A model generated the notes under the pieces. That model was not told where the DNA came from. It saw only the letters and a program-made list of their open reading frames with translations, and ran no database searches. Shown here piece by piece: positions 19,449 to 63,597 of a DNA stretch of 64,000 nt. The DNA comes from Bacteroidota bacterium (lineage in GTDB: Bacteria; Bacteroidota; Ignavibacteria; UBA10030). Each line of letters opens with the position of its first letter. The stretch's first letter is position 1. The DNA lies in the NCBI GenBank assembly GCA_035286705.1, contig DATECW010000088.1, forward strand, positions 2,853-66,852, read 5' to 3'. Both the position numbers and the translations under genes were made by a program.

Positions 19449-19566
19449 CTCCTTGTTGAGAAAGAATGATCTCTTTCGTTACCTCACGTGGAAAACATGA
19501 GGAAAGCACACCCGTATCCTTGGGATAGAGGAATCCCCGGATTAGGGTAATTACAAGGAGAAGCTG

Positions 19567-23706: not shown

Positions 23707-23855
23707 TGGGACCGTGGCCGGTATTTGTAAAGCTGATTCTAGTGGCGAGTGTCAGAGATTCCTTTAATAAGTCGCCAGCAGCTTTCGGACGAATTCTGAC
23801 TGTTTTGAGCAATCTTAGGGAACGAATTTATTCAAGGAACTTGCAGCTCGAGACA

Positions 23856-25073
23856 CTAGAGGGAAACGACATCCCCCTGATGGAACAAGGAAATAAACAG
23901 CAGCAGATAATCTCTGATGTGGCGGGTGATGAGAAAATTGTTCTTGATGTGTTCCCTGCCGTTCAAACCCAGCTTGCGTGCATATTCAGGCTCGTTGATC
24001 ATCTGCTTGATCCAGTATGCTGTTCCCTCAACGGAATGAGTGAGAATTCCCGAATACTTGTGGGCAATTTGCAGGGGAATTCCCCCCACCGCAGAGGCTA
24101 TTGTCGGCCTTCCCTTCCACAACGCCTCCGAGACAGTCAGCCCAAAACCCTCTTTCAGGGATTTCTGCAGTACTACCGTTGACCCGCGTTGAAGCGCGTT
24201 GATTTCGAGATCGCTCCCAGGCGGCAGGAAAAGCGAGAAAATGTTCTTGTCACCTGCAGCCTCGTCTTCGACCTGTTTCATGATCGCAGGGCCCTCCGGA
24301 TCGTCCGTAGCACCACCGCCTGCAAGCACCAACTGAACATCCAGGTGTTTTTTGACAAGCTTGTATGCTTTGATAACGCCAAGAGGATCTTTGAGATAAT
24401 CGAAACGGGAGATCTGGGTGACGACCGGCAGGGAACGGTCAATATGAAACCGCTCAAACACAGAATCAATGTAGCTTTCGGGCAGTTCCTTGTTCTTATC
24501 GCTCAAAGGGTCAATGGACGGAGCAATCAACACCTGGGGAATTGGAAGACTTCGGGCAAATGCCGGAGCGGAAAAAACGGCGACATCGTACCGCTTGATA
24601 TATTGTTCCAGGAAACTCCAGATCTTCCTGTCGGGCCTGGAGAAGTCGATATGACAACGCCACATCCATTTTCGTCCTTCGTGTTTGTCCTGGTCGATAA
24701 GGGCAACCGGCTGGGGATCGTGAACAAACACAAGCCCTGCGGACTGGAGCACCTGCGCATTATCCCGGTTGACCTGCAGAAACCACTCGTACTCATCGTC
24801 GCTCACCGTCACCGGCACTCCGTGAAGCCCGTTGTGGAATTTCTTCGTTATCACAAAGAATTTCTCGTCGCCTTTAATGACATCCCACCGGGCCTGGACA
24901 CCCAGCTGATTGAGGAGCGGTATCATTCGGGAAAGTATCTCCGCGACACCGCCTCCCACGGCAGTCGAGTTAATATTCTGCACCTGCTTCCCTTCCAGAT
25001 GCCTCGCCAGCATGCGGAGCTCATCAACGGTCGACTGTCCCACGATTGGGATGTATTCTTCAAGCTGTACCAT
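23856..25073 (-). CDS. treT: Trehalose glycosyltransferring synthase TreT (GT4)
   Basis: Multiple blocks match archaeal/Thermotoga TreT: NSTAVGGGVAEIL, VHDPQPVALI, WRCHIDFS, PSIDPLSDKN, VTQISRFD, DDPEG, KEGFGLTVSEALWKG, AVGGI, NNFLITRHIRDYL. Confidence 0.8.
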   Translation of the reverse strand: MVQLEEYIPIVGQSTVDELRMLARHLEGKQVQNINSTAVGGGVAEILSRMIPLLNQLGVQARWDVIKGDEKFFVITKKFHNGLHGVPVTVSDDEYEWFLQVNRDNAQVLQSAGLVFVHDPQPVALIDQDKHEGRKWMWRCHIDFSRPDRKIWSFLEQYIKRYDVAVFSAPAFARSLPIPQVLIAPSIDPLSDKNKELPESYIDSVFERFHIDRSLPVVTQISRFDYLKDPLGVIKAYKLVKKHLDVQLVLAGGGATDDPEGPAIMKQVEDEAAGDKNIFSLFLPPGSDLEINALQRGSTVVLQKSLKEGFGLTVSEALWKGRPTIASAVGGIPLQIAHKYSGILTHSVEGTAYWIKQMINEPEYARKLGLNGREHIKNNFLITRHIRDYLLLFISLFHQGDVVSL

Positions 25074-25701
25074 GCACCTGCACCAATTGTATGATCATGC
25101 TTCGAAGCCCTTCGAGCGTATAGGTATACGGGTCAAGGCGAGCAACCATGTCCGCAAGCTCCATCTTTCCAAGATCACGAAACCAGCGTGAGAAATCGTT
25201 TTCCCCTTTTTCCAGTCTCAATTTGGCCTCAAAGATATGATAGTACAGCGAGCCGTGGCTAATCAGCTTCAACGATTCCACAAAATCCTGAAGCGAATGC
25301 GCTACGTACGGTGTGCGGAGGACAAAGGTTCTCGCCGCCATGAAGTGAAATTCCTGGCCCGCTGGAGCCGAGGGCATACGCTCCGTGCTGTCCATGTGTG
25401 ATTGCAGAATGTCAACGAAGACATTCCGAAGCTCTTCCAGAGTGTGGAACTGTATGATATCGACACTGGAGATTCTCTCCGCCAGCGATCCTTCGTTCAG
25501 GACATCAGTGATCCAGTACGCAAAATCGTTGGGGGGCTCCGGAGAAAGAAAGTGGTGCTGCCGGAGATACCGATGCGTGTGGTAATAAATCGAAGATTCC
25601 GGGACCCCCTGGACCCCTGCGAGCAATTCAGAGAGGTTTCGCGCCTTGATTCCCAGGAGGATCGATTGATCCAGTTTCGTATGGAAATAGAATTCGTCCA
25701 A
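25060..25701 (-). CDS. Conserved hypothetical protein co-transcribed with treT
   Basis: 213-aa soluble ORF overlapping treT by 14 nt. No recognised motif. Confidence 0.4.
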   Translation of the reverse strand: MDEFYFHTKLDQSILLGIKARNLSELLAGVQGVPESSIYYHTHRYLRQHHFLSPEPPNDFAYWITDVLNEGSLAERISSVDIIQFHTLEELRNVFVDILQSHMDSTERMPSAPAGQEFHFMAARTFVLRTPYVAHSLQDFVESLKLISHGSLYYHIFEAKLRLEKGENDFSRWFRDLGKMELADMVARLDPYTYTLEGLRSMIIQLVQVHGTA

Positions 25702-30524: not shown

Positions 30525-30539
30525 TCAGAATTGTCCTCC

Positions 30540-30929
30540 TTATAAAGTCTTTTTTACGGCTTCAGCGTCTCCTTCATATTTTGACGGGCACTTTGTCAGT
30601 ACCTCCTTCGCATGAAAATGATCCCCGCTGAACGTGCCCTTTGCCACAACACTCGTGGCAATCTCGAAATTGTTCGGCTTGGCACCTTCAAGAACGACTT
30701 TCATGACCATCTGGTTGTCGTCCTTCATGTAAAACATAAACTGCGCCTTGTCCGGGTCGAACTTGCTGTCCATATCCTTCATCCATTCCCCCTTCACCTG
30801 AACTTTCTTGCCGGTCTTCTCGGCCGTCGCAAAGTCGGCATACTCCACATTCGACTCAAAAAAATTCACAGCACCCAGTACAAGTCCGACGACAATCACA
30901 GCTGCAGCGACAATAACCTTCCCGTTCAT
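30540..30929 (-). CDS. ccmE: Cytochrome c maturation heme chaperone CcmE, CxxxY variant
   Basis: N-terminal TM anchor, OB-fold-sized body. C-terminus LTKCPSKYEG aligns with E. coli LAKHDENYTP, so the heme-binding His is replaced by Cys. Confidence 0.7.
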   Translation of the reverse strand: MNGKVIVAAAVIVVGLVLGAVNFFESNVEYADFATAEKTGKKVQVKGEWMKDMDSKFDPDKAQFMFYMKDDNQMVMKVVLEGAKPNNFEIATSVVAKGTFSGDHFHAKEVLTKCPSKYEGDAEAVKKTL

Positions 30930-30937
30930 GGCGTTCT

Positions 30938-31075
30938 CTATCCCTTCTTCATTGATTGTTCCAGTTCTTTCACTTTCCTGTCGAGCCGCAACAAATAGAA
31001 TACGATCCCTGCCCAGATGAGCAGAATGATGGTCATGACAATAAACAATTGATTGTTCGCAAAAAATTCGAGCAT
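30938..31075 (-). CDS. ccmD: Small single-TM protein, CcmD-like (not in ORF track, 45 aa)
   Basis: Reverse-strand reading gives MLEFFANNQLFIVMTIILLIWAGIVFYLLRLDRKVKELEQSMKKG*. It sits exactly between ccmC and ccmE, with start codon adjacent to the ccmC stop. Confidence 0.5.
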   Translation of the reverse strand: MLEFFANNQLFIVMTIILLIWAGIVFYLLRLDRKVKELEQSMKKG

Positions 31076-31786
31076 TTATCCCTCTTCGTTCTGAAGTATC
31101 CGGTGATAGTCCAATCGGGCAACCCTCAGGCGCAGATTAAAAAGCCAGATGTAGAGCAGATTGAATCCGACAAGTCCAAGATAAAAAAGGACCCGCATGT
31201 TTGCCGCCATCATTTTCCCCTCGAACAACGGGCCCGAGCCTTCATCCCCTTTTGCCCCTGGATGAAGCCCTCCCACCATGCGCGGCATGACGAAAATAAA
31301 GAACGGTACGGTCAATCCCGCAATGATCGCGTACACAGCCGACAGTGCGGCCCTTTTTTCTTCCGAATCAATCGCCGAGCGCAGCGCAAAATAGGCGCCG
31401 TAGATCAGAAGAAGAACAAAAATTGATGTCTGTCGCGGATCCCAATTCCAGAAGGACCCCCAATTGAATTTCGCCCACAGCGCTCCCGTTACGGTCGCCA
31501 GAATGCAGAACAGGAGTCCCAATCCCGCAGACGTCACTGATTTCAGATCGTCGTCGATGTTTCTTTTTCGCAAATAACGAATGCCATAAAATGTGGAAAC
31601 AAGGAAGGCCAGTACCGTTGTCCATGCTGTGGGGACATGGAAGAAAATATTGCGTGCCTTTTGTTCCAGTCCCGGGATTTCAGGGAATTCCAGCCAGCTG
31701 GTCGGGGAAGGAACGAGAGGAATCGCCAGTCCTGCGACCAGGACAAATGTGATGATAAGAATGGATCCCAGTTTAACGAATTTCAT
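31076..31786 (-). CDS. ccmC: Heme exporter protein CcmC
   Basis: Six TM helices. WWD domain FNWGSFWNWDPRQTS. 236 aa. Confidence 0.85.
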   Translation of the reverse strand: MKFVKLGSILIITFVLVAGLAIPLVPSPTSWLEFPEIPGLEQKARNIFFHVPTAWTTVLAFLVSTFYGIRYLRKRNIDDDLKSVTSAGLGLLFCILATVTGALWAKFNWGSFWNWDPRQTSIFVLLLIYGAYFALRSAIDSEEKRAALSAVYAIIAGLTVPFFIFVMPRMVGGLHPGAKGDEGSGPLFEGKMMAANMRVLFYLGLVGFNLLYIWLFNLRLRVARLDYHRILQNEEG

Positions 31787-31834
31787 CGAGATTTGAGAAG
31801 TGGATATTTACAGGTGCAGCCTACCGCATTCAAT

Positions 31835-31980
31835 TTCACACCTCTGTGGCACTCTGTGTAATGTTTCTTTCCCTTGGGTTATTTCACAGAGAGACACAGA
31901 GCAAGAAAAGAGAGTTCCACAGAGAAAAGCTTCCCTCTGTGTCCCTCTGTGACTTCTCTGTGACACACTGTGTAATATTC
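31835..31980. repeat. Intergenic palindromic repeat element (CACAGAG x3 / CTCTGTG x3 arms plus a CTCTGTG..CTGTGTAAT copy) inserted between ccmB and ccmC
   Basis: 31885-31925 is cacagagagacacagagcaagaaaagagagttccacagag. Its reverse-complement-like arm at 31935-31976 is ctctgtgtccctctgtgacttctctgtgacacactgtgtaat. A further cctctgtggcactctgtgtaatg sits at 31841-31863. The ctctgtgtcc core recurs at 45406. Confidence 0.6.
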
Positions 31981-31989
31981 TCTTTGAAA

Positions 31990-32661
31990 CTAATCCTTCC
32001 AAACATAGTCGAAGAGCAGGTACGAACCCGCGGTGATGACCATAACATAGGAGATTAACACCAGAAAATCTACAGCAGCTTCACCGAATCGCTCACCATC
32101 GAGTGCTTTCGCGGTCGCATTCATCACGCTCATCAGCAGAATGATCAAGATCGGAAACGAAAGAACCGGATATAAAGTTCCTCGTGTGTTCGCTTTTGCG
32201 ATGATCGCCGCGATGATGGTTGCAGCCGATGCCAATCCCAGGCTTCCAAGAACGACAGTCACGAGGAAAACATCGAGCGACTGGATCGAGAAGCCCGGAA
32301 AAGCCACTGTATACACAATGGTAACACCCAGGACAAGTGACAGGGTCAACAGGACGTTGAACAGCAGTTTCCCAAAATATACGGAGGATGGAATCGCCAC
32401 CAATTGAAGCGTAAGCGCGGTGCCACGTTCTTCTTCACTCACAAAGGCTCTCGAAAGTCCGGACATAGCCGAAAAGAAAACAACAACCCAGAACATTCCC
32501 GCGAGCACCGTACTCGAGGGCTGGTCTCCTCGCAAAGCAAAGAGGATGATTGAAACCGTGGTGAGAACAAACATGAGGAGGGCATTCAGAGCATACCGCG
32601 TCCGAAGCTCGGACTGGACGTCCTTTGTCACAATGGCATAAATGCTCTTCCACGTATTCAT
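31990..32661 (-). CDS. ccmB: Heme exporter permease CcmB
   Basis: 223 aa, six TM helices, positioned between ccmA and ccmC. Confidence 0.75.
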   Translation of the reverse strand: MNTWKSIYAIVTKDVQSELRTRYALNALLMFVLTTVSIILFALRGDQPSSTVLAGMFWVVVFFSAMSGLSRAFVSEEERGTALTLQLVAIPSSVYFGKLLFNVLLTLSLVLGVTIVYTVAFPGFSIQSLDVFLVTVVLGSLGLASAATIIAAIIAKANTRGTLYPVLSFPILIILLMSVMNATAKALDGERFGEAAVDFLVLISYVMVITAGSYLLFDYVWKD

Positions 32662-32679
32662 GATCTGTCGATCACTTTG

Positions 32680-33306
32680 TCATACTCCGACATGAATTCT
32701 TTTCTTGCACCAGGATGCCTCCCGCTCATCGTTCGTGGCTATGATTGTGAGAGTGTCCGTCTGCAGGCTTTGCACCGTATCATGCACGACCCTGCATCCA
32801 TCTTCATCCAGGTTCGCCGTCGGCTCATCGAGCATGACGATGGAGGGGGCATGCGCTAATGCCACAATGTACTTCAATCGCTGCTTCATTCCGGATGAGA
32901 ATGTCCGCACAACGTCATCGCGTCGTTCCCAGAGTCCATAGGTTCTGAAAATCTTCTCGATATCCGCGGGCGCGGGCGTCGAGTTGTTTCGTATCCTTAA
33001 CAAGATCAGGAGATTTTCGAGCGCGGTAAATTCATCATAAAGCTGGAGGTACGGGGACACAAGCCCTATCGTCGGCCGCAACCCGTCCAGATCGACGGCT
33101 GCTCCTGAGAGCTCGTATTCCACTTTTCCTTTTGTGGGACTCAGCAATCCCGCCAGGACCTTGATCAATGTGGATTTTCCGGATCCGTTCTTTCCCGTGA
33201 CGGCAAGCGATTCGCCGGAGCTGAGGGAAAAAGTGATGTCTTTCAACACCGTTCTCCTGTTGAAATTCTTCCCTATTCCTGCTGCACGAATTGTTACGAG
33301 GTTCAT
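32680..33306 (-). CDS. ccmA: Heme ABC exporter ATP-binding protein CcmA
   Basis: Walker A GKNGSGKST, signature FSSGMKQRL, Walker B IVMLDEPTANLD. About 208 aa. Start moved to MNLVTI. Confidence 0.8.
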   Translation of the reverse strand: MNLVTIRAAGIGKNFNRRTVLKDITFSLSSGESLAVTGKNGSGKSTLIKVLAGLLSPTKGKVEYELSGAAVDLDGLRPTIGLVSPYLQLYDEFTALENLLILLRIRNNSTPAPADIEKIFRTYGLWERRDDVVRTFSSGMKQRLKYIVALAHAPSIVMLDEPTANLDEDGCRVVHDTVQSLQTDTLTIIATNDEREASWCKKRIHVGV

Positions 33307-34991
33307 CGGATGACCGCCAGTTTCCATCGGTATTCCCGCTGTCCCGTTTTCAGATAGATGAAATGAACTCCTGATGACACTTTTCCGGCAAAGTCCCTTG
33401 TGGGAACCGTCACAGTCGCCTGCCCGAAAACACTTGCCACGGGATACGAACCGGAGAACACGAGATCGAATGTTGCAGTCAGAATGAATACGCTGGCGGG
33501 GCCGGACAAAGAGCCTTCAGCCGGCAGAGCAAGAGTTGTCGCATCCTGAATTCTCAACGGATTAGGGGAAGGAACCGGCCTGCCGTTCAGACCCGATTCG
33601 GAGGCCGTTCCTATATAAAGAGTCCGCCAATCTTCTGCAGGTTCCCCCTCAAATCCCATGACAAACCCATTCAAGAGTCTCTGGATTGCTCCGTTGGTCT
33701 CAGACCGAGAGAGAGTCAGTCGGATACCCGAACGCTGGCCGGGGTTTGTGTAAGCCATCTCATGATTGACATTCGAAACCTCGGCAAGAATTGTATCTCC
33801 CGGGACCGTAAAGGCATAGTATTGTACTGACAAGGGATACGCCTCACCCTGGATGAACATTGACGATCCGCTGAACGATGCAGTCACGTTCGGCTGAATC
33901 ATCGGGAACAGATGCCCTTCTTCGTAGTATCGCAACGTGTCTGCGCGCTGGCCTGTGAACATGTTCCACGCCGAAAATTCGGCAAATGCCGTTCTGAGGC
34001 TGCTACCGGCATTCTTAAGCACCACATCCATACTCTTCAAGGCGGGCTGCAAACGCATTTCCTCCCAAATCCGCCTGATGACGTCTTTTCCGAATCGCTT
34101 CTCCAGGTATTGGTTCCAGATCGATCGTTCATACCCTGAGTTTGCAAGCGTGTACGTAGCAAATGCATGGGATTGCCCCGACGGGTCTTTGAAGCTCTGA
34201 AGAAATCGCGGAAGATCAAAGTAGTAGTCATTGATATCATCGTAGACCACTTCCTCAATCCACACAGAAGTCAATTCATAGAAAAAAAAGTCGTTGTCCG
34301 GAACCGTGTTCCAGATACCGTATGATCCAATTTGAAGGGCATGGTGAAACTCATGAGCAGCAGTGACGCGCGCGCCGTCTAATCCTTTCGTCCTTTGAGC
34401 AAAAAAATCATTGTCGATTTCTATGAATGTGACGTAACGATCCCGAACTCCGCTCTCGAGCTGTGTTTCCCCATCCCAGGATGTGAATCCGAACAGGTCG
34501 GACGGCTGATCCCGGATGTACACGTCGTACTCAGCTCCGCCGCCGCTCCCTCCGTCCGAAGGCGGCGGGCTGAAACCCAGAAGTTCAATCTCCACATTCC
34601 AGCATTGATCGAAGATCGCTCCCACGGAATCGACATATTCCTCGTGCGAATTGAGAACAGGATTCAACGGAGTACCGGCGAGCATCCGCGGAAGGTTCAC
34701 GCCTGATGTATCGTAGTGAATTCGGAATCGCCCCGACGGACTGAGCCGGCTTGTGTGCAGGTTCGGCCTCAGGAGTATTTGTCCAATTGTCGTTCTGACA
34801 TTCTCCGGGAATTCCTGAATCCTCCGGCGGGCTTCAAAGATGAGCGTTGTCCCGCATTTCCCGCCGAAATCCTCCCTTTTCCCAATCTGGACTTCACGAA
34901 GGATTTCCCGAAGAACCTCCATCGGTTTCTGCTGCGCCTCCGCTGCAACGGCCATGATCAAAGAGAGTACGGCAAAGACCGCAACCCGCAT
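33303..34991 (-). CDS. Secreted putative zinc metallopeptidase with T9SS C-terminal sorting domain
   Basis: Signal peptide MRVAVFAVLSLIMAVAAEAQQ. HExxH motif in AAHEFHHALQIGSYG. C-terminal SGVHFIYLKTGQREYRWKLAVIR matches the Por_Secre_tail pattern. Start moved to the internal Met. Confidence 0.6.
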   Translation of the reverse strand: MRVAVFAVLSLIMAVAAEAQQKPMEVLREILREVQIGKREDFGGKCGTTLIFEARRRIQEFPENVRTTIGQILLRPNLHTSRLSPSGRFRIHYDTSGVNLPRMLAGTPLNPVLNSHEEYVDSVGAIFDQCWNVEIELLGFSPPPSDGGSGGGAEYDVYIRDQPSDLFGFTSWDGETQLESGVRDRYVTFIEIDNDFFAQRTKGLDGARVTAAHEFHHALQIGSYGIWNTVPDNDFFFYELTSVWIEEVVYDDINDYYFDLPRFLQSFKDPSGQSHAFATYTLANSGYERSIWNQYLEKRFGKDVIRRIWEEMRLQPALKSMDVVLKNAGSSLRTAFAEFSAWNMFTGQRADTLRYYEEGHLFPMIQPNVTASFSGSSMFIQGEAYPLSVQYYAFTVPGDTILAEVSNVNHEMAYTNPGQRSGIRLTLSRSETNGAIQRLLNGFVMGFEGEPAEDWRTLYIGTASESGLNGRPVPSPNPLRIQDATTLALPAEGSLSGPASVFILTATFDLVFSGSYPVASVFGQATVTVPTRDFAGKVSSGVHFIYLKTGQREYRWKLAVIR

Positions 34992-53908: not shown

Positions 53909-55855
53909 TCATTCCTCCCGCTTCGACGATTTCTTCCCCTCCAGAGGAGCTCCCGTGGAGGTTGTATCGGTACGCGATAGCTGAATTGCGCGAATGCGCG
54001 GACGGACACGCGCAGCATAAGGACTGGAAGAATAGGTTTGCAGCAAAACAGTGTACTGATTCAGCGCGCTGTCCGGCTGGGAAAGCCGATGTTCATACAG
54101 CCAACCTACCGTATAGGCGCTTTTTGCGGCAAAAGGAGAAAGCGGAAAGTCTGATGTGATCTTCTTAAGCGTACTTATTGCCTGAGAGTAGTTGCCCGAA
54201 TCAATTGTCGCTTCGGCTTTCTTGTAGAGCATCTCGCTGTCATCCGATTCGGTTGGCTCGAGAGGGACGCCAAGCTGGATCTTTGCTCTCATCGCATAGA
54301 CAGACTTCGGGTAGGTTTCAATGATCGAGCGCAACAGCGCGTTGCCATCGCCATACCCCCTGGACGCGTTGGAGAGCGCTAACTCTGCAAGAATATACGT
54401 GATGCGGGGAGTTCTCACACTATCGTCTATCCCCTTCAGTGCCTCTTTATACCAGAATACGGCCGAATCGGGATTCTCAATGTCGATGTAAAACAGTTCA
54501 CCCATTTCATAGCAATTCACCGCGAAAGCAGACCGGAGCGAGTCGAGATTGAGCCGCGGAGTTGTTGCCGCTGTCGTATCGAGGGGCAGACTATCGGCGA
54601 GAGATTCGACAGCAATCACGCTGTCAAGTTTCGCTCGGGCATCGTTCAGAGAAAAATACCGAGTGAATCCCGATTGTTTCCTTCGCGCTTCAGCAATGAA
54701 CTCGGGGACCGGGAAGGCAGTTGACCGCCCATAGGAATCACGAGCAGCGCGATAGTCGCCTTTCGTATACTCAGACAATCTGGCAAGTTCAAAAGAAGCC
54801 TTTGACCCGAGCTCTGACCGACCCGACGTTGTGTCCACTTCCGTAAAATCGTCCACGGCAAGCTCGATCTGTCCCCCTAGCCTGTACGTAACTCCCCGTT
54901 CAAAGACTATTTCCCTGGAATTCTGTGCAAAACGAAAGTTGTCCAGCATCTCATTCAACCTGCCCAGAGATTCATCGAGCCGGCCCAAGGATCGCAACGT
55001 ACGAATGTACTCAAGATGGCATCGGTACTGGATTTGACGATCGTCGGTGTTTTCCGCGGCACGTCGAAACATCTCGGCGGCGTCTTCAGGTTGATTGAGA
55101 ACAATTTTTTGTTCGCCGGCCCTGAAGAGCGCCCATGCCCGTGTTTCGTCATCCGCGCCGAGTTCCTTCAACCGATCATACATCGCCAGCGACCGGTCAT
55201 GCCGGTTCACCCGTTCGTAGAGAACGCCCAGGACGTCTGAGACTGCGGCAGCAAGATCAGTTTCATCTCCCGCCTCCGTCTGCGGAAGGAGAAATTCTCC
55301 CTCCTCGATCGCCTGGTCATCCTTTTTCAGGCGGGCGAGGGTCTTGATGTACCAGAGGCGCGCTTCGAAATTCAGCGGGGAATTCGGATAGACGGAAAAA
55401 AATTCTGTGAATTTCCTCTCGGCTTTCAGATAGTCGCCCTGGTAGTAATAGGATTTCCCGATCAGCATCAATGCATCATCGACGAGAGCGCTCGAAGGAT
55501 AGAACTGGAGGATATTCGAGCATTTGTCGATGACGATGGTCAACCGCGGCCGCGTTGTGTTCGGCAACGGTTGGGGTTTGTCGGTAAATCCCCGAATGCC
55601 GGAAAGCTGATCGGCCGCAGCAATCTCAGCCTCGGCATCATCAAATGCGCGGCGGGCGTTGTAGTATGAATTGAAATATGCAACGGTGTTCTGATAGCCG
55701 TCGGAGATCGAGTCTCCGACCGAACTGAAAAATGAACAACCATTGAAGAACGACAGGGTCAACAGGAGGATGGAAAAGAGGAAGCGAAATACTGGGAACG
55801 ATCTCATTGCACCATTCAAGATATTGAAAAAGCCGCTGCTTATCAAGTCACTCAC
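53909..55855 (-). CDS. TPR-repeat protein (648 aa), likely lipoprotein/periplasmic
   Basis: N-terminal hydrophobic segment with Cys (LSFFNGCSFF). Multiple TPR-like helical repeats throughout. Its stop overlaps the SDR start by 4 nt. Confidence 0.6.
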   Translation of the reverse strand: MSDLISSGFFNILNGAMRSFPVFRFLFSILLLTLSFFNGCSFFSSVGDSISDGYQNTVAYFNSYYNARRAFDDAEAEIAAADQLSGIRGFTDKPQPLPNTTRPRLTIVIDKCSNILQFYPSSALVDDALMLIGKSYYYQGDYLKAERKFTEFFSVYPNSPLNFEARLWYIKTLARLKKDDQAIEEGEFLLPQTEAGDETDLAAAVSDVLGVLYERVNRHDRSLAMYDRLKELGADDETRAWALFRAGEQKIVLNQPEDAAEMFRRAAENTDDRQIQYRCHLEYIRTLRSLGRLDESLGRLNEMLDNFRFAQNSREIVFERGVTYRLGGQIELAVDDFTEVDTTSGRSELGSKASFELARLSEYTKGDYRAARDSYGRSTAFPVPEFIAEARRKQSGFTRYFSLNDARAKLDSVIAVESLADSLPLDTTAATTPRLNLDSLRSAFAVNCYEMGELFYIDIENPDSAVFWYKEALKGIDDSVRTPRITYILAELALSNASRGYGDGNALLRSIIETYPKSVYAMRAKIQLGVPLEPTESDDSEMLYKKAEATIDSGNYSQAISTLKKITSDFPLSPFAAKSAYTVGWLYEHRLSQPDSALNQYTVLLQTYSSSPYAARVRPRIRAIQLSRTDTTSTGAPLEGKKSSKREE

Positions 55856-56559
55856 GGCCTGGTCGGTCGGATATCAATTTCGCTTATCATGGCCCGATCC
55901 GGCATGGTAACAGCGAGGAGAACCGTATCGGCAACATCCTGCGGTGAGAGAATTCTCTGCGCTTTGTCAGGATCCCGCTGCGGGGAAAACGTCGTATCTA
56001 CCGATCCCGGTGAGATCGTCACGACACGGATATTATGGTCGCGTTCCTCAAGCATGAGACATCGGGAAAATCCGAGCAATGCCCATTTCGTTGAGGCGTA
56101 TCCTGCTCCCCCAACAAACGCGTTCTTTCCCGCGAGTGATGATATATTAACAATGACTCCCCGCTTGTCCCTTTCCATAGCCTGGATGGCAAGTTTCGTA
56201 CAATGGACCACTGCCCTCACGTTCAGCCTCCACATCTCATCCAGGTCGTTCATCGTGAGGCTTCGGACCGGTGCGAATCTTCCAATACCCGCGTTGTTGA
56301 CGAGGATGTCGATTCGGCCGTGGCGTTCGGTGATGTCCCTGAAAACCCGCTCGGCGGCAGCGTCGTCGGTAATATCTGCTTCGGCAGTCTCTGCCTTTCC
56401 GCCGCGTTCTTCAATCTCTCTCCGAACAGCGTCCAACTCTTTCCCGGATCTGGAGTTCAGGACAACCAAAGCACCTTCTGCCGAGAGAGAAATGGCGATT
56501 GCCCTTCCTATCCCCCTGCCGGCACCCGTAACGAGTGCGATCGTGCCCTCCAGTTTCAT
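55852..56559 (-). CDS. SDR family oxidoreductase (candidate pterin/sepiapterin reductase 1)
   Basis: TGAGRGIGRAIAISL Rossmann motif. Y/K catalytic context (GYASTKWAL). Start moved to MKLEG. Confidence 0.75.
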   Translation of the reverse strand: MKLEGTIALVTGAGRGIGRAIAISLSAEGALVVLNSRSGKELDAVRREIEERGGKAETAEADITDDAAAERVFRDITERHGRIDILVNNAGIGRFAPVRSLTMNDLDEMWRLNVRAVVHCTKLAIQAMERDKRGVIVNISSLAGKNAFVGGAGYASTKWALLGFSRCLMLEERDHNIRVVTISPGSVDTTFSPQRDPDKAQRILSPQDVADTVLLAVTMPDRAMISEIDIRPTRP

Positions 56560-57287
56560 ATTTTCAGATCTCCAAGTTGCGGACGAAAAGCGATTTCTTC
56601 CACCATCATGGAAACCGGCATGCCAGCCGTCGCAACAATGAACTCGGCAACATCTTCCGGCCTCATCATCCGATGTTTGAAACGCGAACGGGCTTTCACG
56701 CTCCACATCGGCGTCACTGAAGCCCCGGGATAGACGTTGACAACCTTGATGTTCTTGTCCCGAACCTCCTCCCGAAGAACACTCATCATGGCGGCCCCGG
56801 CAGATTTCGACGCCGCATAGACACTCGAACCGGTGTAAACAGTCTTCGCCGCATACGAGAGGATGTTGATGATAAGACCCCTCCGCATTTTGAGCATCGA
56901 AGGAAGAACAGCTGAGGTCAAGAGAAACATACCCCTCACGTTTGTCTCCATCACATGGTCGAACTCTTTCGGCGTCATTGAAATGAAATCCTTGAAGTAC
57001 GTCACTCCGGCATTATTCACCAGGATATCAACCTTACCCAACCGCGCGACTTTCCTTGCGGCCGCTCGGATGCTCGCTTCACTGCGAACGTCACACTGCA
57101 CGGGAATGAAGTCGCCGCCCGACCGACTGATTCTGTTTGCCAAAGTCTTTAAGCGCGCGGCGTTCCTCCCGTACCCTATCACCACGTCCCCTTCACACGC
57201 AAACCTGCGTGCAAGGGCTTCTCCAATACCTGATCCCGCCCCTGAAACAAGAACGATACGCGTGGTTCTTTGATCCCTACTTGGCAA
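56556..57287 (-). CDS. SDR family oxidoreductase (paralog 2)
   Basis: [13 protein letters not shown] Rossmann motif. SVYAASKSA catalytic YxxxK. Overlaps the neighbouring genes by 4 and 11 nt. Confidence 0.75.
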
Positions 57288-57858
57288 GGTTGGGTCCGAT
57301 GAGAGTGAGGAACTCGCTTCTTGTTTTCACGTCATCGCGGAAGCTGCCGATCATGGCACTTGTCGTGGCCATGGAACTCTGCTTTTCCACTCCGCGCATC
57401 ATCATACAGAGGTGTCTTGCTTCAACAATGACACCGACTCCCAGGGGGTTCAACCACTCAAACAACGTGTCGGCAATCTGCTGGGTCATGCGTTCCTGAA
57501 CCTGCAGCCGGCGGGAAAACACTTCGACAATGCGCGGCATCTTGCTGAGGCCGATGATCTTTCCATTGGGGATATAGGCGATATGGCATTTCCCATAGAA
57601 AGGAAGCAAGTGATGTTCACACAGACTGAAAAAATCGATGTCTTTCACAATCACCATCTCGCTGTACCGTTCCTTGAACACCGCTCCGTTCATTACCTCA
57701 TTGATATCCTTTTTGTAGCCCTGGAGAAGGAACTCGTACATTGAAGCAACCCTGGCCGGGGTGCTTTTGAGGCCCTCGCGTTGCGGGTCCTCGCCCCATT
57801 GAGTAAGGAGATCCTTGATCAACGATTCAGTTTTGCGGACGTTCGATGGCATTCTCAT
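57277..57858 (-). CDS. folE: GTP cyclohydrolase I
   Basis: [18 protein letters not shown] is a near-identical pattern to FolE, including the zinc-binding Cys/His. Confidence 0.9.
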
Positions 57859-58268
57859 TCTCCCCGATACTCAACAACGTTATTTTCGGTTTCATGAAGG
57901 CGAATGGAAAAGAGCTTACCCTCCGTTATCCTGGGCGCCAGAAGATTCCATATCACCACGGCAATGTTTTCTGCCGTGGGAATCACCCCTTTGAATGACT
58001 CGACATCGAGATTCAAATGCTTGTGATCCATCTTTGAAAGCACCTCTTCCTGAATGATCCGCTTCAGTTTCTTGAGATCTATGACGTACCCCGACTTTTT
58101 CCCCGGTTTTCCGGCAACAGTCACTTCCAGCACGTAATTGTGCCCATGGCCATGTGGATTGGCGCATTTGTCAAAGAGCTCGTTGTTTTCGGCATCCGAT
58201 AACGCAGGATTGTACAAACGATGGGATGCACTGAATGTTGAACGACGAGTAACATAAACGGTGTTCAT
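57855..58268 (-). CDS. 6-pyruvoyl-tetrahydropterin synthase family protein (PTPS / QueD)
   Basis: [29 protein letters not shown] carries the Cx3HGH zinc/catalytic motif. 137 aa. Confidence 0.8.
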
Positions 58269-58729
58269 TGATTTCCGATAATCTCCAAAACTTGTTCTGT
58301 ATGCCCGTCCACTTTGACCTTCCTGAAAATCGCAGTTATCTTTCCTTTTTCATCAATCACGAAGGTGGACCTTTCAATTCCCATGAACTTCCGCCCATAC
58401 AGGCTTTTCTCCCTCCAGACACCGTATGCTTTGATAGTCTTTTCCCCCGAGTCACTCAGCAGAGGGAACTTCAGCCCGAACTTGCCAACGAATCGCTCAT
58501 GTGACTCAAGAGAATCCCCGCTGATGCCGAGGACGACGGCGCCGGAGGACCGGATCGAATCGAAATGCTCATTAAATGAGCAGGCCTCCCTGGTGCAGCC
58601 AGACGTATTGTCTTTTGGATAGAAATAGAGCACCACCTTTTTTCCCCGGAGATCCTTCAACCGGAGATTCATCTTGCCGCCGGTCACCGGAAGGTCGAAT
58701 TCAGGAGCTTTGTCCCCGATCTTCAGCAT
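58265..58729 (-). CDS. bcp: Thioredoxin-dependent peroxiredoxin Bcp (PrxQ)
   Basis: YFYPKDNTSGCTREACSF has the peroxidatic Cys in the conserved context. Confidence 0.85.
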   Translation of the reverse strand: MLKIGDKAPEFDLPVTGGKMNLRLKDLRGKKVVLYFYPKDNTSGCTREACSFNEHFDSIRSSGAVVLGISGDSLESHERFVGKFGLKFPLLSDSGEKTIKAYGVWREKSLYGRKFMGIERSTFVIDEKGKITAIFRKVKVDGHTEQVLEIIGNQ

Positions 58730-58741
58730 CGTTTTTGTCTC

Positions 58742-59269
58742 TCAGAATGGTAGAATCAGTGTGATAACAACGCAAAGACCAAGGAAAAGGTTCACAGTAA
58801 GCAGCATCATTGAACGTCCCACCGCCCGCCGAATCCTCCGGATTTCCTCGTTGCCCGGATCGGTGATTTCCGATGTGTGGAGCCTCGATCGCAGTGCCTC
58901 GATTCCGGGAAGCATCGTAAACCGGAGATAGACTGTCAGCAGAGTTGCAAGTGAAGTGAGACTGAGGGCAATTCGCAGCTTGAGGCCGATCGAGTCAGAG
59001 AGAAGAAGGAGTTGCAGGTAAAGAGTCGCGAGAAGAAACACCTGGAGGAATGCAAGGAGTCCATTATAGCGCCTCATAATAAGAGCTACCAATTCGCTTG
59101 CCCCTTCAAGGGGTGAAGTGCGAAAAGCGGACGGCGCCACGATAGTCAACAGGACTGTCGTTCCGCCGATCCACAGCGAGAGACAGACGAACTGAAGAAT
59201 CAGGACCAAATACGTCATCATGGAGGGTAGAAAGAGCAGCGGGTCGCTTGTGCGACCCGCGGGTTTCAT
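58742..59269 (-). CDS. Hypothetical integral membrane protein (DUF4149-like)
   Basis: Four or five predicted TM helices. Sits between the two peroxiredoxin genes. Confidence 0.4.
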   Translation of the reverse strand: MKPAGRTSDPLLFLPSMMTYLVLILQFVCLSLWIGGTTVLLTIVAPSAFRTSPLEGASELVALIMRRYNGLLAFLQVFLLATLYLQLLLLSDSIGLKLRIALSLTSLATLLTVYLRFTMLPGIEALRSRLHTSEITDPGNEEIRRIRRAVGRSMMLLTVNLFLGLCVVITLILPF

Positions 59270-59751
59270 TTGATGGCCGTGAGAGCCGAGGATATTTCAT
59301 CATAATTCGGTTCAACGCCGGGACTTTCGGTAATCCATACGTATGTGACCTTGCCATGCTTATCAATCACGAATATGGATCGTTTGGATGCAGTGTAACC
59401 GGAGACTCCTGCGAAATCGTTATACAAGCCCGCGTATTGCTTGCTCACGATCCGATCGTGATCGGAGAGCAGAATGAATTGAAGTTTGTTCTGTGTGGCA
59501 AAGGCTTTGTTGGCAAATGGGCTGTCAATGCTGATGCCGACAACATGCGCATTGAGTGTGTTCATCCCCGCCATGGAATCCTGAATCGCGCACATTTCCT
59601 TTGTACATACGCCAGTGAACGCGCCGGGATAGAATGCCAGAACCGTGCTCTTTCCGAGGAATTCCTTCAACGAATGCGGTTTCTTGTCATAGTCAAAAAG
59701 CGTAAACTCGGGGGCTTTGTCCCCAACTTTGACCGGCATAGTGACCTCCAT
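59266..59751 (-). CDS. Peroxiredoxin, AhpC/TSA-Bcp type
   Basis: FYPGAFTGVCTKEMCAIQD gives the Cp...Cr spacing typical of Bcp. Confidence 0.8.
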   Translation of the reverse strand: MEVTMPVKVGDKAPEFTLFDYDKKPHSLKEFLGKSTVLAFYPGAFTGVCTKEMCAIQDSMAGMNTLNAHVVGISIDSPFANKAFATQNKLQFILLSDHDRIVSKQYAGLYNDFAGVSGYTASKRSIFVIDKHGKVTYVWITESPGVEPNYDEISSALTAIK

Positions 59752-59864
59752 CGTGTTCTAGGATTGTTCCCTTTGGGAACGAAGTGTATGTTCGTGAAAG
59801 CAAAGCGTCCCCTTCTCTTTCTGCGAAAGAGAGGGGTACCCTCCAGGGAGAATCGTGCGGAAGG

Positions 59865-60260
59865 CTACTCGTTGAGAAGACACTCAGAGCACGTTCCAAA
59901 GAAATCCAGCCGGTGAGTGTAGACAATGCCCGGCACCGAGTTCTTCACGCGCTCATTGAGATCTTGCTGCGGTGGCACATCGAGATCCTTGACCCCTCCA
60001 CATTGCATGCAGACGAAGTGATAATGCTCGTCGACGAATGCATCATAGCGGCGGGATGTCTCTCCAAAGTCGAGTTCTCGGACTTTTCCCTGTTGCTTGA
60101 GAATATTGAGATTCCGATAAACAGTTCCAAGTGAAATCTTGGGCATCTGCTCACGGACTTTCTCAAATACCCACTCGGCTGTCGGGTGAGAACGCGTTTT
60201 CCTCAGAGTCTGGAATATTCTTTCACGCTGCTTACTGCGTTTGGTAATCAGAGTTTGCAT
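59865..60260 (-). CDS. Fur family transcriptional regulator (PerR-like by context)
   Basis: Winged helix N-terminus. HYHFVCMQCG and FGTCSEC metal-site motifs. Adjacent to the peroxiredoxins. Confidence 0.75.
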   Translation of the reverse strand: MQTLITKRSKQRERIFQTLRKTRSHPTAEWVFEKVREQMPKISLGTVYRNLNILKQQGKVRELDFGETSRRYDAFVDEHYHFVCMQCGGVKDLDVPPQQDLNERVKNSVPGIVYTHRLDFFGTCSECLLNE

Positions 60261-60371
60261 GAATTGTCCTCGAGAAGGTGAAGTTGGACAAAAAAAAGAT
60301 ATCGAATAATGAGAGTAATGTCAAGAACCATTCCGAAAATCATACCTGTTTGTCCTAAAACGGAACTCTCG

Positions 60372-60446: not shown

Positions 60447-60833
60447 ATGGCAAACGTTGCTCTCTTTTTGTTCCTGCTTCTATCTGTCGCAATGCCACAG
60501 GACACGGCGAATCAGCTCCACGAAGTCACCATCGTAGGGGAAGTGATTGACACGAAATGTTATCTGACACAGGATTCAGAACTCTCGACTGGGGAGAAGC
60601 ACCGGGAGTGCGCGATCAAATGCGCAAAGCGCGGCATTCCGCTCGCTATACTGGAAGAGAAAACGGAGAAGGTGTATTTTACAACCAAGGAACGCGGTAA
60701 CTCCGACGCGAACGAGATGCTTCTTCCGTTTGTCGGTGAGCGAGTTGAGGTGCACGGTACACTTGCTGAGAAAGGCGGGGCAAGACTGCTTCTTGTTCGC
60801 AGTGTCGAAAGGTCGCGCACGATTCCGAAATGA
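60447..60833 (+). CDS. Hypothetical secreted protein (3 Cys)
   Basis: Signal peptide MANVALFLFLLLSVAM. Good RBS. No recognised family. Confidence 0.45.
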   Translation: MANVALFLFLLLSVAMPQDTANQLHEVTIVGEVIDTKCYLTQDSELSTGEKHRECAIKCAKRGIPLAILEEKTEKVYFTTKERGNSDANEMLLPFVGERVEVHGTLAEKGGARLLLVRSVERSRTIPK

Positions 60834-60893: not shown

Positions 60894-60980
60894 GGAAGGG
60901 TGCGAGAGTGGTTGAATCGGCCGGTCTCGAAAACCGGTGTGGCCTCCGGGCTACCGTGGGTTCGAATCCCACCCCTTCCG
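60894..60980 (+). tRNA. tRNA-Ser (anticodon CGA)
   Basis: Acceptor stem GGAAGGG/CCCTTCC with discriminator G. Anticodon stem CCGGT/ACCGG with loop CTCGAAA. Long variable arm (GTGTGGCCTCCGGGCTACC). T-arm GTGGGTTCGAATCCCAC. Confidence 0.85.
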
Positions 60981-61033
60981 CAAAACTACGTCCATACAAC
61001 GGACTCCGTTTTGCAGGGATCTTCAGTAGACGA

Positions 61034-62464
61034 TCATCCCTGCTTGCCGCCGGCAGTAAATCCTTTTCGTTGCATCTCTCCCCATGATCGCACGTCCCTC
61101 ACAAAGTAGTCCCAGAAGGCTTTTACCCTCCACCAGGTAGTCAATTGCCGGTATCCGAAATTCTCAATGACACCAATAGAAAGCAACAAGGCAAGATCCC
61201 GCGGTCGAGGGTATCGCTGGAACGAAACCTCCTCAAGAAGGACAGCTCCCACTGAGAACATCACTCCGTAGAAGAGGGCGACGATAAAAAAGAGAACAGC
61301 CAACTTCATGTCAAGAATCCCCAATGCATATAGCCCTGTGAGCGAAGCGTAGCCAAAAAACTCGATTGCCGGACCCAACAGCTCGACGAAAACAAAGTAT
61401 GGCATCGCAGCAAGCCCAATGACGCCATACGCCGGATTAAACAACATCTTCCTGTGAATCAACATTGTATCAAGCAAACCCCTATGCCATCGGTTGCGCT
61501 GGCGCGAGAGCATTTTGAACGATTCCGGCGCTTCCGTCCAGCAAACCGGATCCGGGACGAACACCACCCTGTAGGGTTCTTTCTTTTCCCTCTTCATCCG
61601 ATGAAGCCTTGTGATCAGCTCCATGTCTTCACCAACAGTATCCCGACGGTAGCCTCCTGCCTCAACAAGGGCATCCTTCCTGAAGAGACCAAAAGCTCCG
61701 GAGATAATGAGTAAACCATTGACACCGTGCCAGGCCATTCTGCCGGACAAGAAGGCCCTGAAGTATTCCACAACCTGAAAAACCGGAAGGAGCCGGCTTG
61801 AAAGCTTGACGTTCACCACTCGACCGTTCACCACTTCGCACCCGTTCGCAATGCGTACAATCCCCCCCGCTGCAACGACCGTGTCATCCTCCAAGAACGG
61901 CTTGACAACGCGAAGCAGAGCATCGTCTTCCAGGAGCGAGTCGGCATCAATGGAGCACACGAATTCGTGCCTTGCCGCATTGATTCCGGCATTCAGCGCA
62001 TCTGCCTTTCCTCCGTTTTCCTTGTCAACCACAACCAGGTTTTTGTGCTCAGTTTTGGTAGACCGATAGATTCCCCTCACCTCTTTGCATGGAAGCACGG
62101 GAGCATAGAGCTGCTTCGAAGGAAGAAGATGGAATTCCCGTTGAAGACGGTCCAGGGTTCCATCTTTCGACCCATCATTGATGACGACAACTTCGAAATT
62201 CCCATAATTCAGTTTCATAAGGCTCCGCACGCTCTCAACGACCGTTGCCTCTTCATTGAATGCAGGCGCAATAATTGACACGGGCGGCGTAAGCTCCGAC
62301 TGAACCATCACCCGGTAGTTGCTGAAGGCATTATGGCGCATGTATCGCATGATTTCCCGGAACGAGAGAATGAGGAGGACAGTATACGTCACATTGACGA
62401 CGATAAAGAAGCCCGTCACAAAATACATGTAGTATTCAGCCGCTATTTCAAGGATGCCGATCAT
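61034..62464 (-). CDS. Processive family-2 glycosyltransferase (PgaC/IcaA-like poly-beta-1,6-GlcNAc synthase type)
   Basis: N-terminal TM helices. DGSKDGT, DADS and QRNRWHRG (QxxRW) motifs. C-terminal TM cluster. Confidence 0.75.
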   Translation of the reverse strand: MIGILEIAAEYYMYFVTGFFIVVNVTYTVLLILSFREIMRYMRHNAFSNYRVMVQSELTPPVSIIAPAFNEEATVVESVRSLMKLNYGNFEVVVINDGSKDGTLDRLQREFHLLPSKQLYAPVLPCKEVRGIYRSTKTEHKNLVVVDKENGGKADALNAGINAARHEFVCSIDADSLLEDDALLRVVKPFLEDDTVVAAGGIVRIANGCEVVNGRVVNVKLSSRLLPVFQVVEYFRAFLSGRMAWHGVNGLLIISGAFGLFRKDALVEAGGYRRDTVGEDMELITRLHRMKREKKEPYRVVFVPDPVCWTEAPESFKMLSRQRNRWHRGLLDTMLIHRKMLFNPAYGVIGLAAMPYFVFVELLGPAIEFFGYASLTGLYALGILDMKLAVLFFIVALFYGVMFSVGAVLLEEVSFQRYPRPRDLALLLSIGVIENFGYRQLTTWWRVKAFWDYFVRDVRSWGEMQRKGFTAGGKQG

Positions 62465-63597
62465 GATTGTGGCTGGAGCCCCTCAACCTCCTCAAGAACA
62501 TGGAGGGCGATTGCCTTGACAAGGCTCTCACTGTGGTCGGTAAACAGGCGAAGCTCTTCGAGCCCGGCGTTCCCCGATTTCGCGAGAGCACGGGCCGCAG
62601 AAATACGTTCCTGAATATCCCCCGACGTGATGCGTTCTTTCAGTCGAGGAATGGATCCCGGCGAACCGACGCGCTCGAGTGCCTTGACGGCGCTTGACCT
62701 GATGAGCGGGTAGGGATTGGAGAGGAGATCGCGAAGAAGCGGCTCCGACCGTTCGTCACTGAGCCGGCCAAGGGCTTCTATCGCCTTGGAGCGTACGATC
62801 ACATTGGGATAGTCTTGCGCCATCGCGACAAGAGGTTCCACCGCCGACACGAAACCGATTTCCGCGAGCATCTCAATCGAGAAAAGGATGACCGATTGAT
62901 CCTTGTACTGCAAAGCCTCAATCAGGTAGGGAATGGATTTTTCTTCGAACTGTCTCACGATGATCGACAGTTCGAGTGTTGTCCATCTCGACAGGCCCTT
63001 TACCATTTGGAAAATGGTCCTCAGCGCTTCAACTCCCACCAGAGCCACGAGAGATTGCATCGCCTGATTGCGAACGTCATCGTGATCGTCGGTCAATGCA
63101 GCGGTCAAGGCGGGAGTTCCTCTCCGTGCCCGCAGCAAACCAAGGTTCCGCGCCGCGTGCGCACGCACCCACCAATGCCTGCTTCCCAAAAGAGCGATTT
63201 CTTCATCGACGAAGCCAAACGAATAGAAAAAATATTGCAGCCGGTCCAGAGATTCTCCCGACAGGTCCCTGGCAAAATCAATGAGCACGTTCCGAATTGC
63301 AGTGCGATGCAAGCCCTTTCTGGCCCTGGACGACCACGAGAGCCCGCTTTTCACGGGAGCGAGAAGACTCTCGTACTGATCGAAGACGGCGCTTTTTCGG
63401 GATCCGGAAAGCTCGGGCAACGGCTGCAAAAGTAGGTCGGCAAGCAATCCCGAATAGTACCGGTACAGCCGTTCCGTGCTGCGTGACTGACGGAGTTCGA
63501 TCCACTTGTTGATAATCAGGCCAACACTCACCACGATAACAAAGAATGTCGCCCCCACGGCAAGTGCAATGACAATAAGGAATTCGATCGAAAGCAT
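62461..63597 (-). CDS. HEAT-repeat (PBS-lyase-like) membrane-anchored protein co-transcribed with the GT2 synthase
   Basis: N-terminal TM helix. Repeated HEAT-like units (VRSKAIEALGRL, IRSSAVKALERVG, ISAARALAKSG). 4-nt overlap with the GT2 gene. Confidence 0.6.
   Translation of the reverse strand: MLSIEFLIVIALAVGATFFVIVVSVGLIINKWIELRQSRSTERLYRYYSGLLADLLLQPLPELSGSRKSAVFDQYESLLAPVKSGLSWSSRARKGLHRTAIRNVLIDFARDLSGESLDRLQYFFYSFGFVDEEIALLGSRHWWVRAHAARNLGLLRARRGTPALTAALTDDHDDVRNQAMQSLVALVGVEALRTIFQMVKGLSRWTTLELSIIVRQFEEKSIPYLIEALQYKDQSVILFSIEMLAEIGFVSAVEPLVAMAQDYPNVIVRSKAIEALGRLSDERSEPLLRDLLSNPYPLIRSSAVKALERVGSPGSIPRLKERITSGDIQERISAARALAKSGNAGLEELRLFTDHSESLVKAIALHVLEEVEGLQPQS

Follow-up and report, generated by a model that had tools for sequence, protein, structure and literature searches.

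A predicted tetrahydrobiopterin-type pterin pathway encoded with two peroxiredoxins behind a PerR-like gene in Ignavibacteria

In a 64,000-nucleotide stretch of contig DATECW010000088.1 (assembly GCA_035286705.1; hereafter called the window) from a member of the Ignavibacteria, the gene of a PerR-like regulator of the Fur family precedes a putative polycistronic unit. This unit codes for two PrxQ/BCP thiol peroxidases and for a predicted set of pterin biosynthesis enzymes, namely GTP cyclohydrolase I (FolE), 6-pyruvoyl-tetrahydropterin synthase (PTPS) and two short-chain dehydrogenases/reductases (SDRs). Sequence evidence supports the identities of the enzymes, the signatures of PTPS-II and of the sepiapterin reductase type of Chlorobium tepidum, the coupled gene junctions and the conservation of a Prx2-Bcp-PTPS-FolE-SDR1 core. 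The pterin pathway appears to be of a known type, the bacterial tetrahydrobiopterin (BH4) route, and its joining with peroxiredoxins behind a PerR-like gene appears to be new. Our preferred reading is that the two cytoplasmic peroxidases and a complete de novo BH4-type route act together, a proposal that we regard as evenly balanced between true and false. The host, an uncultured Ignavibacteria-type bacterium, belongs to a sister group of the green sulfur bacteria but is not itself a Chlorobium.

Domains and families were assigned with Pfam and NCBIfam profiles, and structure matches were sought among PDB sequences. As a comparison sample, we used 80 PTPS-II loci taken from species-representative genomes (labels such as L009 designate these loci). 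All genes of the locus, from the fur-family gene through a gene for a tetratricopeptide repeat (TPR) protein, are on the minus strand. Its main genes are the following:

59865..60260, minus strand: Fur-family regulator, PerR-like, 131 residues (Pfam FUR, 5.8e-27; NCBIfam and PDB matches, ligand residues)
59266..59751, minus strand: Prx2, a PrxQ/BCP-class peroxiredoxin of 161 residues (Pfam AhpC-TSA, 1.2e-33; motif PGAFTGVCTKEMC)
58265..58729, minus strand: Bcp/PrxQ peroxiredoxin, 154 residues (NCBIfam PrxQ, 3.9e-45, and Bcp, 9e-41; motif PKDNTSGCTREAC)
57855..58268, minus strand: PTPS of the predicted PTPS-II type (PDB matches, active-site motif, family alignment)
57277..57858, minus strand: GTP cyclohydrolase I, FolE type IA (TIGR00063, 255.6 bits for a cutoff of 181.6; CEHH...HLC)
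56556..57287, minus strand: SDR1, a predicted sepiapterin reductase of the bacterial, C. tepidum type (PDB match, profile, residues, tree)
55852..56559, minus strand: SDR2, a classical SDR (closest PDB chains 3rkr and 2ehd)

Proteins of the COG0720 family are distinguished by the signatures CxxxxxHGH for PTPS-II, CxxxHGH for QueD/PTPS-I and ExxHGH for PTPS-III (PMC5041015). The active site of the PTPS-family protein reads C35-ANPHG-H41-G-H43, and alignment with the human and rat enzymes places H41 and H43 on their zinc ligands, which fixes the register. C35, H41, H43, D81-H82 and E126 are invariant across the family and include the catalytic residues of animal PTPS (C35, D81-H82, E126). The protein thus shares motif, zinc ligands and Cys-Asp-His catalytic residues with the PTPS-II subfamily of animals and cyanobacteria, and human PTPS (3i2b; E = 7.2e-39, 136 bits) and rat PTPS (1.3e-36, 129 bits) are its strongest PDB matches, with Escherichia coli QueD far behind (5.4e-07, 33 bits). 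PTPS-II was noted by De Crécy-Lagard and colleagues to co-occur with sepiapterin reductase (SR) in ~50 bacteria (PMC5041015); here, an SDR1 of the C. tepidum sepiapterin reductase (CT-SR) type is encoded two genes downstream. The sequence-only reading had left the choice between PTPS and QueD to a classification of the active site: by motif, alignment and the match to human PTPS, the gene product classifies as PTPS-II, neither QueD nor PTPS-III.

An alternative in which the gene codes for QueD (queuosine synthesis) or for a PTPS-III that bypasses FolB (folate synthesis), with SDRs that are unrelated FabG-like reductases, might be drawn from the presence of folC four genes downstream and from public records, where close homologs are named '6-carboxytetrahydropterin synthase' (QueD). 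It might also be drawn from a naive motif match, as His39 lets CANPHGHGH fit both CxxxHGH and CxxxxxHGH, a pitfall for motif-based annotation. However, relatives have Asn or Met at position 39, and the QueD pattern is therefore accidental; the register on the human and rat zinc ligands gives Cx5HGH as the true motif, the Glu at the PTPS-III position (-3) is absent from the sequence, and the QueD profile score (73.7) is under its cutoff of 89.25. We also ran Pfam scans on the genes of the locus, three upstream open reading frames (ORFs) and 40 further ORFs over positions 1-49,397, those outside the locus being at least 130 residues long. The sequence-only reading had noted the absence of queC and queE nearby, and indeed no queC/E/F, tgt, folB/K/P, aromatic amino-acid hydroxylase or carbinolamine dehydratase gene was found in these window ORFs. 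With SDR1 in the CT-SR clade (see below), we regard the QueD or PTPS-III alternative as very improbable, and the QueD-type names of close homologs have probably been over-transferred.

With its Cys/His/Cys zinc motif, FolE belongs to type IA and is a classical GTP cyclohydrolase I, not FolE2. Both SDRs match the sepiapterin reductase of C. tepidum (PDB 2BD0) at ~36% identity. SDR1 aligns with it from end to end, as its best single-domain PDB match, and has the classical SDR features, with SGAGSGIG at the TGxxxGxG glycine motif and the S144, Y157, K161 triad. The Chlorobium enzyme binds its substrate in a swivelled mode that requires both Trp196 and Phe99, and its C-terminal extension is longer than that of mammalian SR (PMC7520308). 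SDR1 keeps Phe99 (GVTYF), Trp196 (TPMW, identical in CT-SR) and a C-terminal RPxxGDL tail; the Trp196 equivalent is invariant in 26/26 members of the SDR1 family, in which the tail is conserved as RPxxGD[LIV]. A profile built from 26 SDR1-type proteins scored 2BD0 at 231 bits vs 191 for the next single-domain chain, and in a neighbour-joining tree with a small outgroup set CT-SR nests within the SDR1-type clade (83/100 bootstraps). Genes of this family adjoin PTPS-II genes in at least five phyla; those seen in Ignavibacteria, Opitutaceae, other Bacteroidota, Rhodothermales and Nitrospinota all code for the Trp and the tail. We conclude from these sequence features that SDR1 is most probably a bacterial-type sepiapterin reductase; since Phe99 and Trp196 are kept, its product may be of the L-threo form, as in C. 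tepidum.

SDR2 departs from the CT-SR type: Ser replaces W196, the C-terminus (RPTRP) is short, and 3rkr and 2ehd rank above 2bd0, which comes fifth among its PDB matches. Its gene is absent from L005 and from most Melioribacter-like loci, and wherever it is present the SDR1/SDR2 junction is the same 4-nt ATGA overlap. SDR2 might assist the pathway by reducing a carbonyl group of the pterin side chain.

The sequence-only reading had recognised in FolE, PTPS and the SDRs the BH4 route known from Chlorobium. This appears correct for SDR1, in the CT-SR clade, but not for SDR2, which is not of the sepiapterin reductase type. In Chlorobium (Chlorobaculum) tepidum, too, the pathway is made up of FolE, PTPS and a sepiapterin reductase (PDB 2BD0), which there yields the L-threo product, and SDR1 resembles CT-SR in its S-Y-K triad, Phe99, Trp196, C-terminal extension and grouping in the tree. 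Unlike in C. tepidum, the host here is non-phototrophic, a second SDR gene is coupled to the first and the pterin genes are joined with those of two peroxiredoxins; in addition, the surroundings of the locus showed no glycosyltransferase gene that might serve to make a glycoside like tepidopterin.

The other half of the unit consists of the two peroxiredoxins. Both Prx2 and Bcp have an AhpC-TSA domain with the PxxxTxxC peroxidatic motif and CxxxxC, in which the resolving Cys follows five residues on, and no signal peptide was found in either. Bcp scores 139.4 against the Bcp model, for a cutoff of 140. Between their genes lies a variable insert:

58742..59269, minus strand: DUF4149 membrane protein (PF13664, 1.7e-07)

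By homology, the DUF4149 gene was detected only in the window and in L009 among relatives. A strong hairpin with a 9-bp stem, 8 of the pairs GC, is found at 59239-59260 (both strands; GCGGGTCGC-ACAA-GCGACCCGC), within the 5' end of the DUF4149 gene and directly after the prx2 stop codon. It is possible that this region was inserted recently or that it acts as an internal attenuator. The Pfam and NCBIfam assignments agree with the sequence-only reading in placing a second Bcp-type peroxiredoxin, a membrane protein and a Fur/PerR-like regulator upstream.

The junctions of the unit were read directly in the window. An ATGA sequence forms a 4-nt overlap between prx2 and the DUF4149 gene, a gap of 12 nt separates the latter from bcp, and ATGA overlaps recur at bcp/PTPS, PTPS/folE and SDR1/SDR2. 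folE and SDR1 overlap by 11 nt, TTG 57287 being the sole possible start of SDR1, and SDR2 starts at ATG 56559, the upstream GTG 56706 of the automatic ORF list not being a real start. In nearly all related Ignavibacteria loci, the Bcp-PTPS-FolE-SDR1 junctions overlap or span at most 20 nt. This tight spacing of Bcp-PTPS-FolE-SDR1(-SDR2) recurs in related loci and is therefore no chance feature of the window.

The series of 4- to 11-nt overlaps described in the sequence-only reading, from bcp to the TPR gene, thus stands through SDR2, but its last member is doubtful, as the SDR2/TPR overlap (GTGA) exists only with GTG 55855 as the TPR start:

53909..55855, minus strand: TPR lipoprotein, PorW/SprE-like (NF052312 PorW_SprE, 3.4e-38, below cutoff; BamD/YfiO and TPR domains)

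ATG 55807, 48 nt later, begins a lipoprotein-like signal peptide (MRSFPVFRFLFSILLLTLSFFNGC) and would leave a gap of 44 nt to SDR2; by sequence, it is the more likely start. Beyond the TPR gene, the same-strand array goes on with pyrK after a gap of 34 nt, then with pyrD, overlapping by 1 nt, and with folC, overlapping by 10 nt, as far as position 50832. No terminator-like sites were seen between the genes of this TPR-pyrK-pyrD-folC run, and downstream of the locus a strong promoter-like site was found only before rho. The operon boundary chosen earlier, at the TPR gene, is arbitrary. This PorW/SprE-like lipoprotein with a likely later start heads unrelated housekeeping genes, tight packing alone proves no shared function, and the gene probably lies outside the pterin/peroxide unit, at the head of the pyrK-pyrD-folC run.

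In 28 of the 80 loci of the comparison sample, Prx2 and Bcp genes directly precede the PTPS gene in the same orientation; a further locus has Bcp alone. All Prx-linked loci belong to Ignavibacterium-like, Melioribacter-like or related Bacteroidota/Ignavibacteria metagenome-assembled genomes (MAGs) or genomes, with Prx2-Bcp-PTPS-FolE-SDR1 as the core. In Ignavibacterium-like genomes, the entire block from the regulator gene to rho is syntenic. In the cultured Melioribacter sp. OK-6-Me, the unit is exactly Prx2-Bcp-PTPS-FolE-SDR1-SDR2, with an unrelated M17 aminopeptidase gene upstream and a convergent gene downstream. The linkage has been kept for long, since SDR1 is only 35-37% identical between the Ignavibacterium- and Melioribacter-like groups. 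As to the window itself, its PTPS protein has a metagenomic twin at 99% identity and other relatives labelled Bacteroidota or Ignavibacteriales, its best match among species-level genomes being only 75% identical; the G+C content is ~0.52, even along the 64 kb.

The regulator gene precedes prx2 at a distance of 113 nt. The best PDB match of its product is Bacillus subtilis PerR (2fe3, 89 bits), the best Fur reaching 68 bits. The five PerR metal ligands (H37, D85, H91, H93, D104) and the four Zn cysteines all have counterparts in its sequence, and the same nine-residue pattern is present in the ten Ignavibacterium-like orthologs examined, H37 lying outside the truncated L004 fragment. Asp instead of Glu at positions 85 and 104 separates PerR from Fur. 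By these residues and matches, the protein classifies as PerR-like. Such an arrangement resembles known PerR regulons, those of B. subtilis PerR and of cyanobacterial PerR with adjacent prx/trxB, in that a Fur-family gene with PerR ligands adjoins thiol peroxidase genes; PerR control of an adjacent peroxiredoxin has precedent (PMC4628125). It differs in that the regulator gene precedes the peroxidase genes in the same orientation and a hairpin stands between them, no PerR box having been identified here, and in that the unit adds pterin biosynthesis genes, of which none were reported in the literature that we consulted on PerR regulons.

The Fur-family protein might instead sense a metal, in a Fur- or Zur-like manner. 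If so, the operon would respond to metal limitation, much as do Zur regulons with paralogs of folE and queD. Zur regulons do include a GTP cyclohydrolase I paralog (PMC4628125). The top NCBIfam match of the regulator, PerR (1.1e-32), reaches 112.9 bits and not the curated cutoff of 180, in a model that is Clostridia-specific. Furthermore, a divergent Fur paralog with Glu85 and Glu104 stands beside the same operon in Melioribacter-like loci (L017, L023, L024, L032, L033, L036, L038 and L042), ~0.4-1 kb upstream of Prx2 and on the opposite strand. Against this, FolE here is the zinc-dependent IA enzyme and not FolE2, the PTPS is of the PTPS-II type and not QueD2, PerR is the best structural relative of the regulator, which has Asp at both PerR-specific ligand positions, and the Zur model yields only 1.4e-05. 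We consider metal sensing quite unlikely.

Three candidate control elements flank the regulator gene:

60296..60324, minus strand: sigma-70-type promoter TTGACA-17-TATCTT, ~35 nt upstream of the ATG of the fur/perR-like gene
59809..59836, minus strand: hairpin CCCCUCUCUUUC-GCA-GAAAGAGAAGGGG with a U-rich stretch behind it, resembling a terminator or attenuator (read directly and folded; spacer z-score -2.05)
59766..59780, minus strand: perfect 15-bp palindrome GTTCCCAAAGGGAAC, a candidate operator or RNA hairpin, 15 nt upstream of the prx2 ATG

A promoter of this kind, TTGACA-17-TATATT, is conserved ~60 nt upstream of the regulator gene in 9/9 Ignavibacterium-like loci with upstream DNA, and no other strong sigma-70-like site was recognised from fur to SDR1 in those 9/9 loci. 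A GC-rich hairpin is found 3' of the regulator gene in most related loci; the sequence of the palindrome is not conserved in relatives. No riboswitch or other RNA element was found at the locus. Transcription from the regulator promoter may pass the hairpin into prx2, by read-through or attenuation; equally possible is a promoter of unrecognised type in the fur-prx2 spacer.

Several other genes surround the regulator. Divergent from it are a small secreted-looking, Cys-containing ORF without family match (60447-60833, plus strand) and then tRNA-Ser(CGA) (60894-60981, plus strand). At 61034-63597 (minus strand), a gene for a PgaC/chitin-synthase-like processive glycosyltransferase of family GT2 overlaps that of a HEAT-repeat protein, and the pair is kept upstream of the regulator in Ignavibacterium-like loci. 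We considered this GT2 (61034-62464) as a pterin glycosyltransferase and rejected it: it looks to be of the PgaC/chitin-synthase type, is paired with the HEAT-repeat protein, and the divergent ORF and tRNA gene stand between it and fur.

According to our preferred reading, FolE would convert GTP to dihydroneopterin triphosphate, PTPS-II would convert the latter to 6-pyruvoyl-tetrahydropterin, and SDR1 would reduce this intermediate to a biopterin-type tetrahydropterin, while SDR2 might reduce one of the two carbonyls of the side chain or act further along the route. Transcription would start at the conserved sigma-70 promoter before the regulator gene and run through the hairpin into prx2, and upon exposure to peroxide the PerR-like protein would derepress the unit. 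The reduced pterin and the peroxiredoxins would then act jointly, the pterin as a small-molecule reductant, antioxidant or scavenger. Alternatively, the peroxiredoxins might clear the H2O2 that arises from autoxidation of the oxygen-labile tetrahydropterin in facultative anaerobes. We infer the functional coupling of pterin synthesis and peroxide defence from synteny alone, in a single lineage. A stronger form of the proposal holds that, in Ignavibacteria, a BH4-type pterin is a dedicated PerR-controlled part of peroxide defence, made on demand together with two PrxQ proteins as a reductant, scavenger or redox buffer; this we think unlikely.

A number of observations weigh against joint action. 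The array runs into the porW-like gene, pyrK, pyrD and folC, of unrelated functions, which makes co-transcription a weak argument for a common function. Neither a pterin-dependent enzyme nor a GT-B pterin glycosyltransferase was found among the window ORFs scanned. A terminator-like hairpin stands between the regulator gene and prx2, and neither a PerR box nor a conserved palindrome was recognised in the aligned fur promoters and fur-prx2 spacers, in which only the -35 and -10 elements are conserved. Melioribacter-like loci have the different, divergently oriented Fur paralog with Glu85/Glu104, or none; the 'one PerR-like regulator' of the sequence-only reading, PerR-like as it is by structure match and ligands, is therefore not clade-wide and applies only to the Ignavibacterium-like group. 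SDR1 is only 36% identical to CT-SR. Finally, a peroxiredoxin gene within 2 kb of PTPS-II was found in 0/51 loci of other clades (Kapaibacteria, a Chlorobiota MAG, Rhodothermales, Nitrospinota, Acidobacteriota, Chloroflexota, Verrucomicrobiota, Gemmatimonadota and others). An apparent second Bcp-PTPS linkage, in Acidobacteria/Methylomirabilota, came from tblastn and profile hidden Markov model matches 0.9-1.6 kb upstream in 13/13 loci, but these proteins have an N-terminal membrane segment and WCPPC and are TlpA/ResA-like thiol:disulfide oxidoreductases. The peroxiredoxin-pterin link is therefore of single origin.

The main rival explanation is a neighbourhood without shared function, in which the pterin genes provide a cofactor or pterin glycoside to an enzyme or role encoded elsewhere, the peroxiredoxins are ordinary housekeeping peroxidases and all are packed in a long co-directional array. 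It accords with the lack of terminators in the array through the porW-like gene, pyrK, pyrD and folC, with the synteny of the Fur-to-Rho block throughout Ignavibacterium-like genomes and with the absence of the peroxiredoxin link in all other PTPS-II clades examined. Likewise, a survey that covered the gene neighbourhoods of over 10,000 members of the family listed only FolE and Nudix around PTPS-II (PMC5445326), and the peroxiredoxin neighbours described here are not among them. However, the five-gene core persists in Melioribacter-like genomes, in which both flanks are different and SDR1 is ~35-37% identical, and the Bcp/PTPS junction is of 20 nt or less in nearly all loci. We hold this explanation to be possible but doubtful, and metal sensing and the QueD/PTPS-III alternative to be much less likely.

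Other PTPS-II clusters in our sample, of the Opitutaceae (PTPS-FolE2-SR), Ktedonobacteria (SDR-PTPS-GT1) and Acidobacteria (GT2-PTPS-PTPS'-FolE), similarly join PTPS-II to GTP cyclohydrolase I and/or a reductase. None of the three contains a peroxiredoxin, those of Acidobacteria having TlpA-like WCPPC proteins. The latter type, found in L041 (8222-12643) and 12 other Acidobacteriota/Methylomirabilota loci, codes for a TlpA-like protein (WCPPC), a GT2, PTPS-II, a second PTPS-II paralog in which DRT replaces the catalytic DHK, and FolE; in L041, a further TlpA-like protein follows the cluster. No SR-type SDR was detected in these TlpA-GT2-PTPS clusters, whose product may be a different, possibly glycosylated pterin. 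The Opitutaceae clusters (L046, 4811-6958; L064) combine PTPS-II and an SDR1-type SR with FolE2 (PF02649), forming a BH4-type cluster on the zinc-independent, non-homologous GTP cyclohydrolase IB. In L045 (9266-11541) and other Ktedonobacteria/Chloroflexia loci, an SDR without the SR tryptophan, PTPS-II and a GT1/GT4-family glycosyltransferase are encoded together, and these may be pterin-glycoside clusters. In the Kapaibacterium MAG L015, a gene for a Thioredoxin_9 (PF14595) protein (11336-12055) stands directly 3' of PTPS-FolE. The recurrence of thioredoxin-fold neighbours near PTPS-II (TlpA-like, Thioredoxin_9) is a weak hint.

Elsewhere in the window (13236-25701 and 28167-33327, minus strand) are genes of a Cus-like RND efflux system in which HMBD/YHS domains occur, trehalose genes that code for an OtsA-OtsB fusion and for TreT with DUF5752, a Ccm cluster for cytochrome c maturation, and two PGA_cap genes.

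Our literature search found neither pterin synthesis in Ignavibacteria nor a peroxiredoxin-PTPS operon. What biopterin-type pterins and the glycosides derived from them do in bacteria has been described as unknown (PMC3546692). The finding overturns nothing established. It does correct annotation: PTPS homologs are named QueD in public records, and SDR1-type proteins are named generic 'SDR family oxidoreductases', yet they appear to form a sepiapterin reductase clade linked to PTPS-II. A whole pathway behind a PerR-like regulator and among peroxiredoxin genes offers a concrete hypothesis, that pterin synthesis is part of the peroxide response. As some relatives of the bacteria with this operon type are in culture (Ignavibacterium album, Melioribacter roseus), it would give a direct experimental handle on the function of bacterial biopterins. 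If PerR-controlled pterin synthesis does take part in peroxide defence, bacterial unconjugated pterins would gain a defined physiological role.

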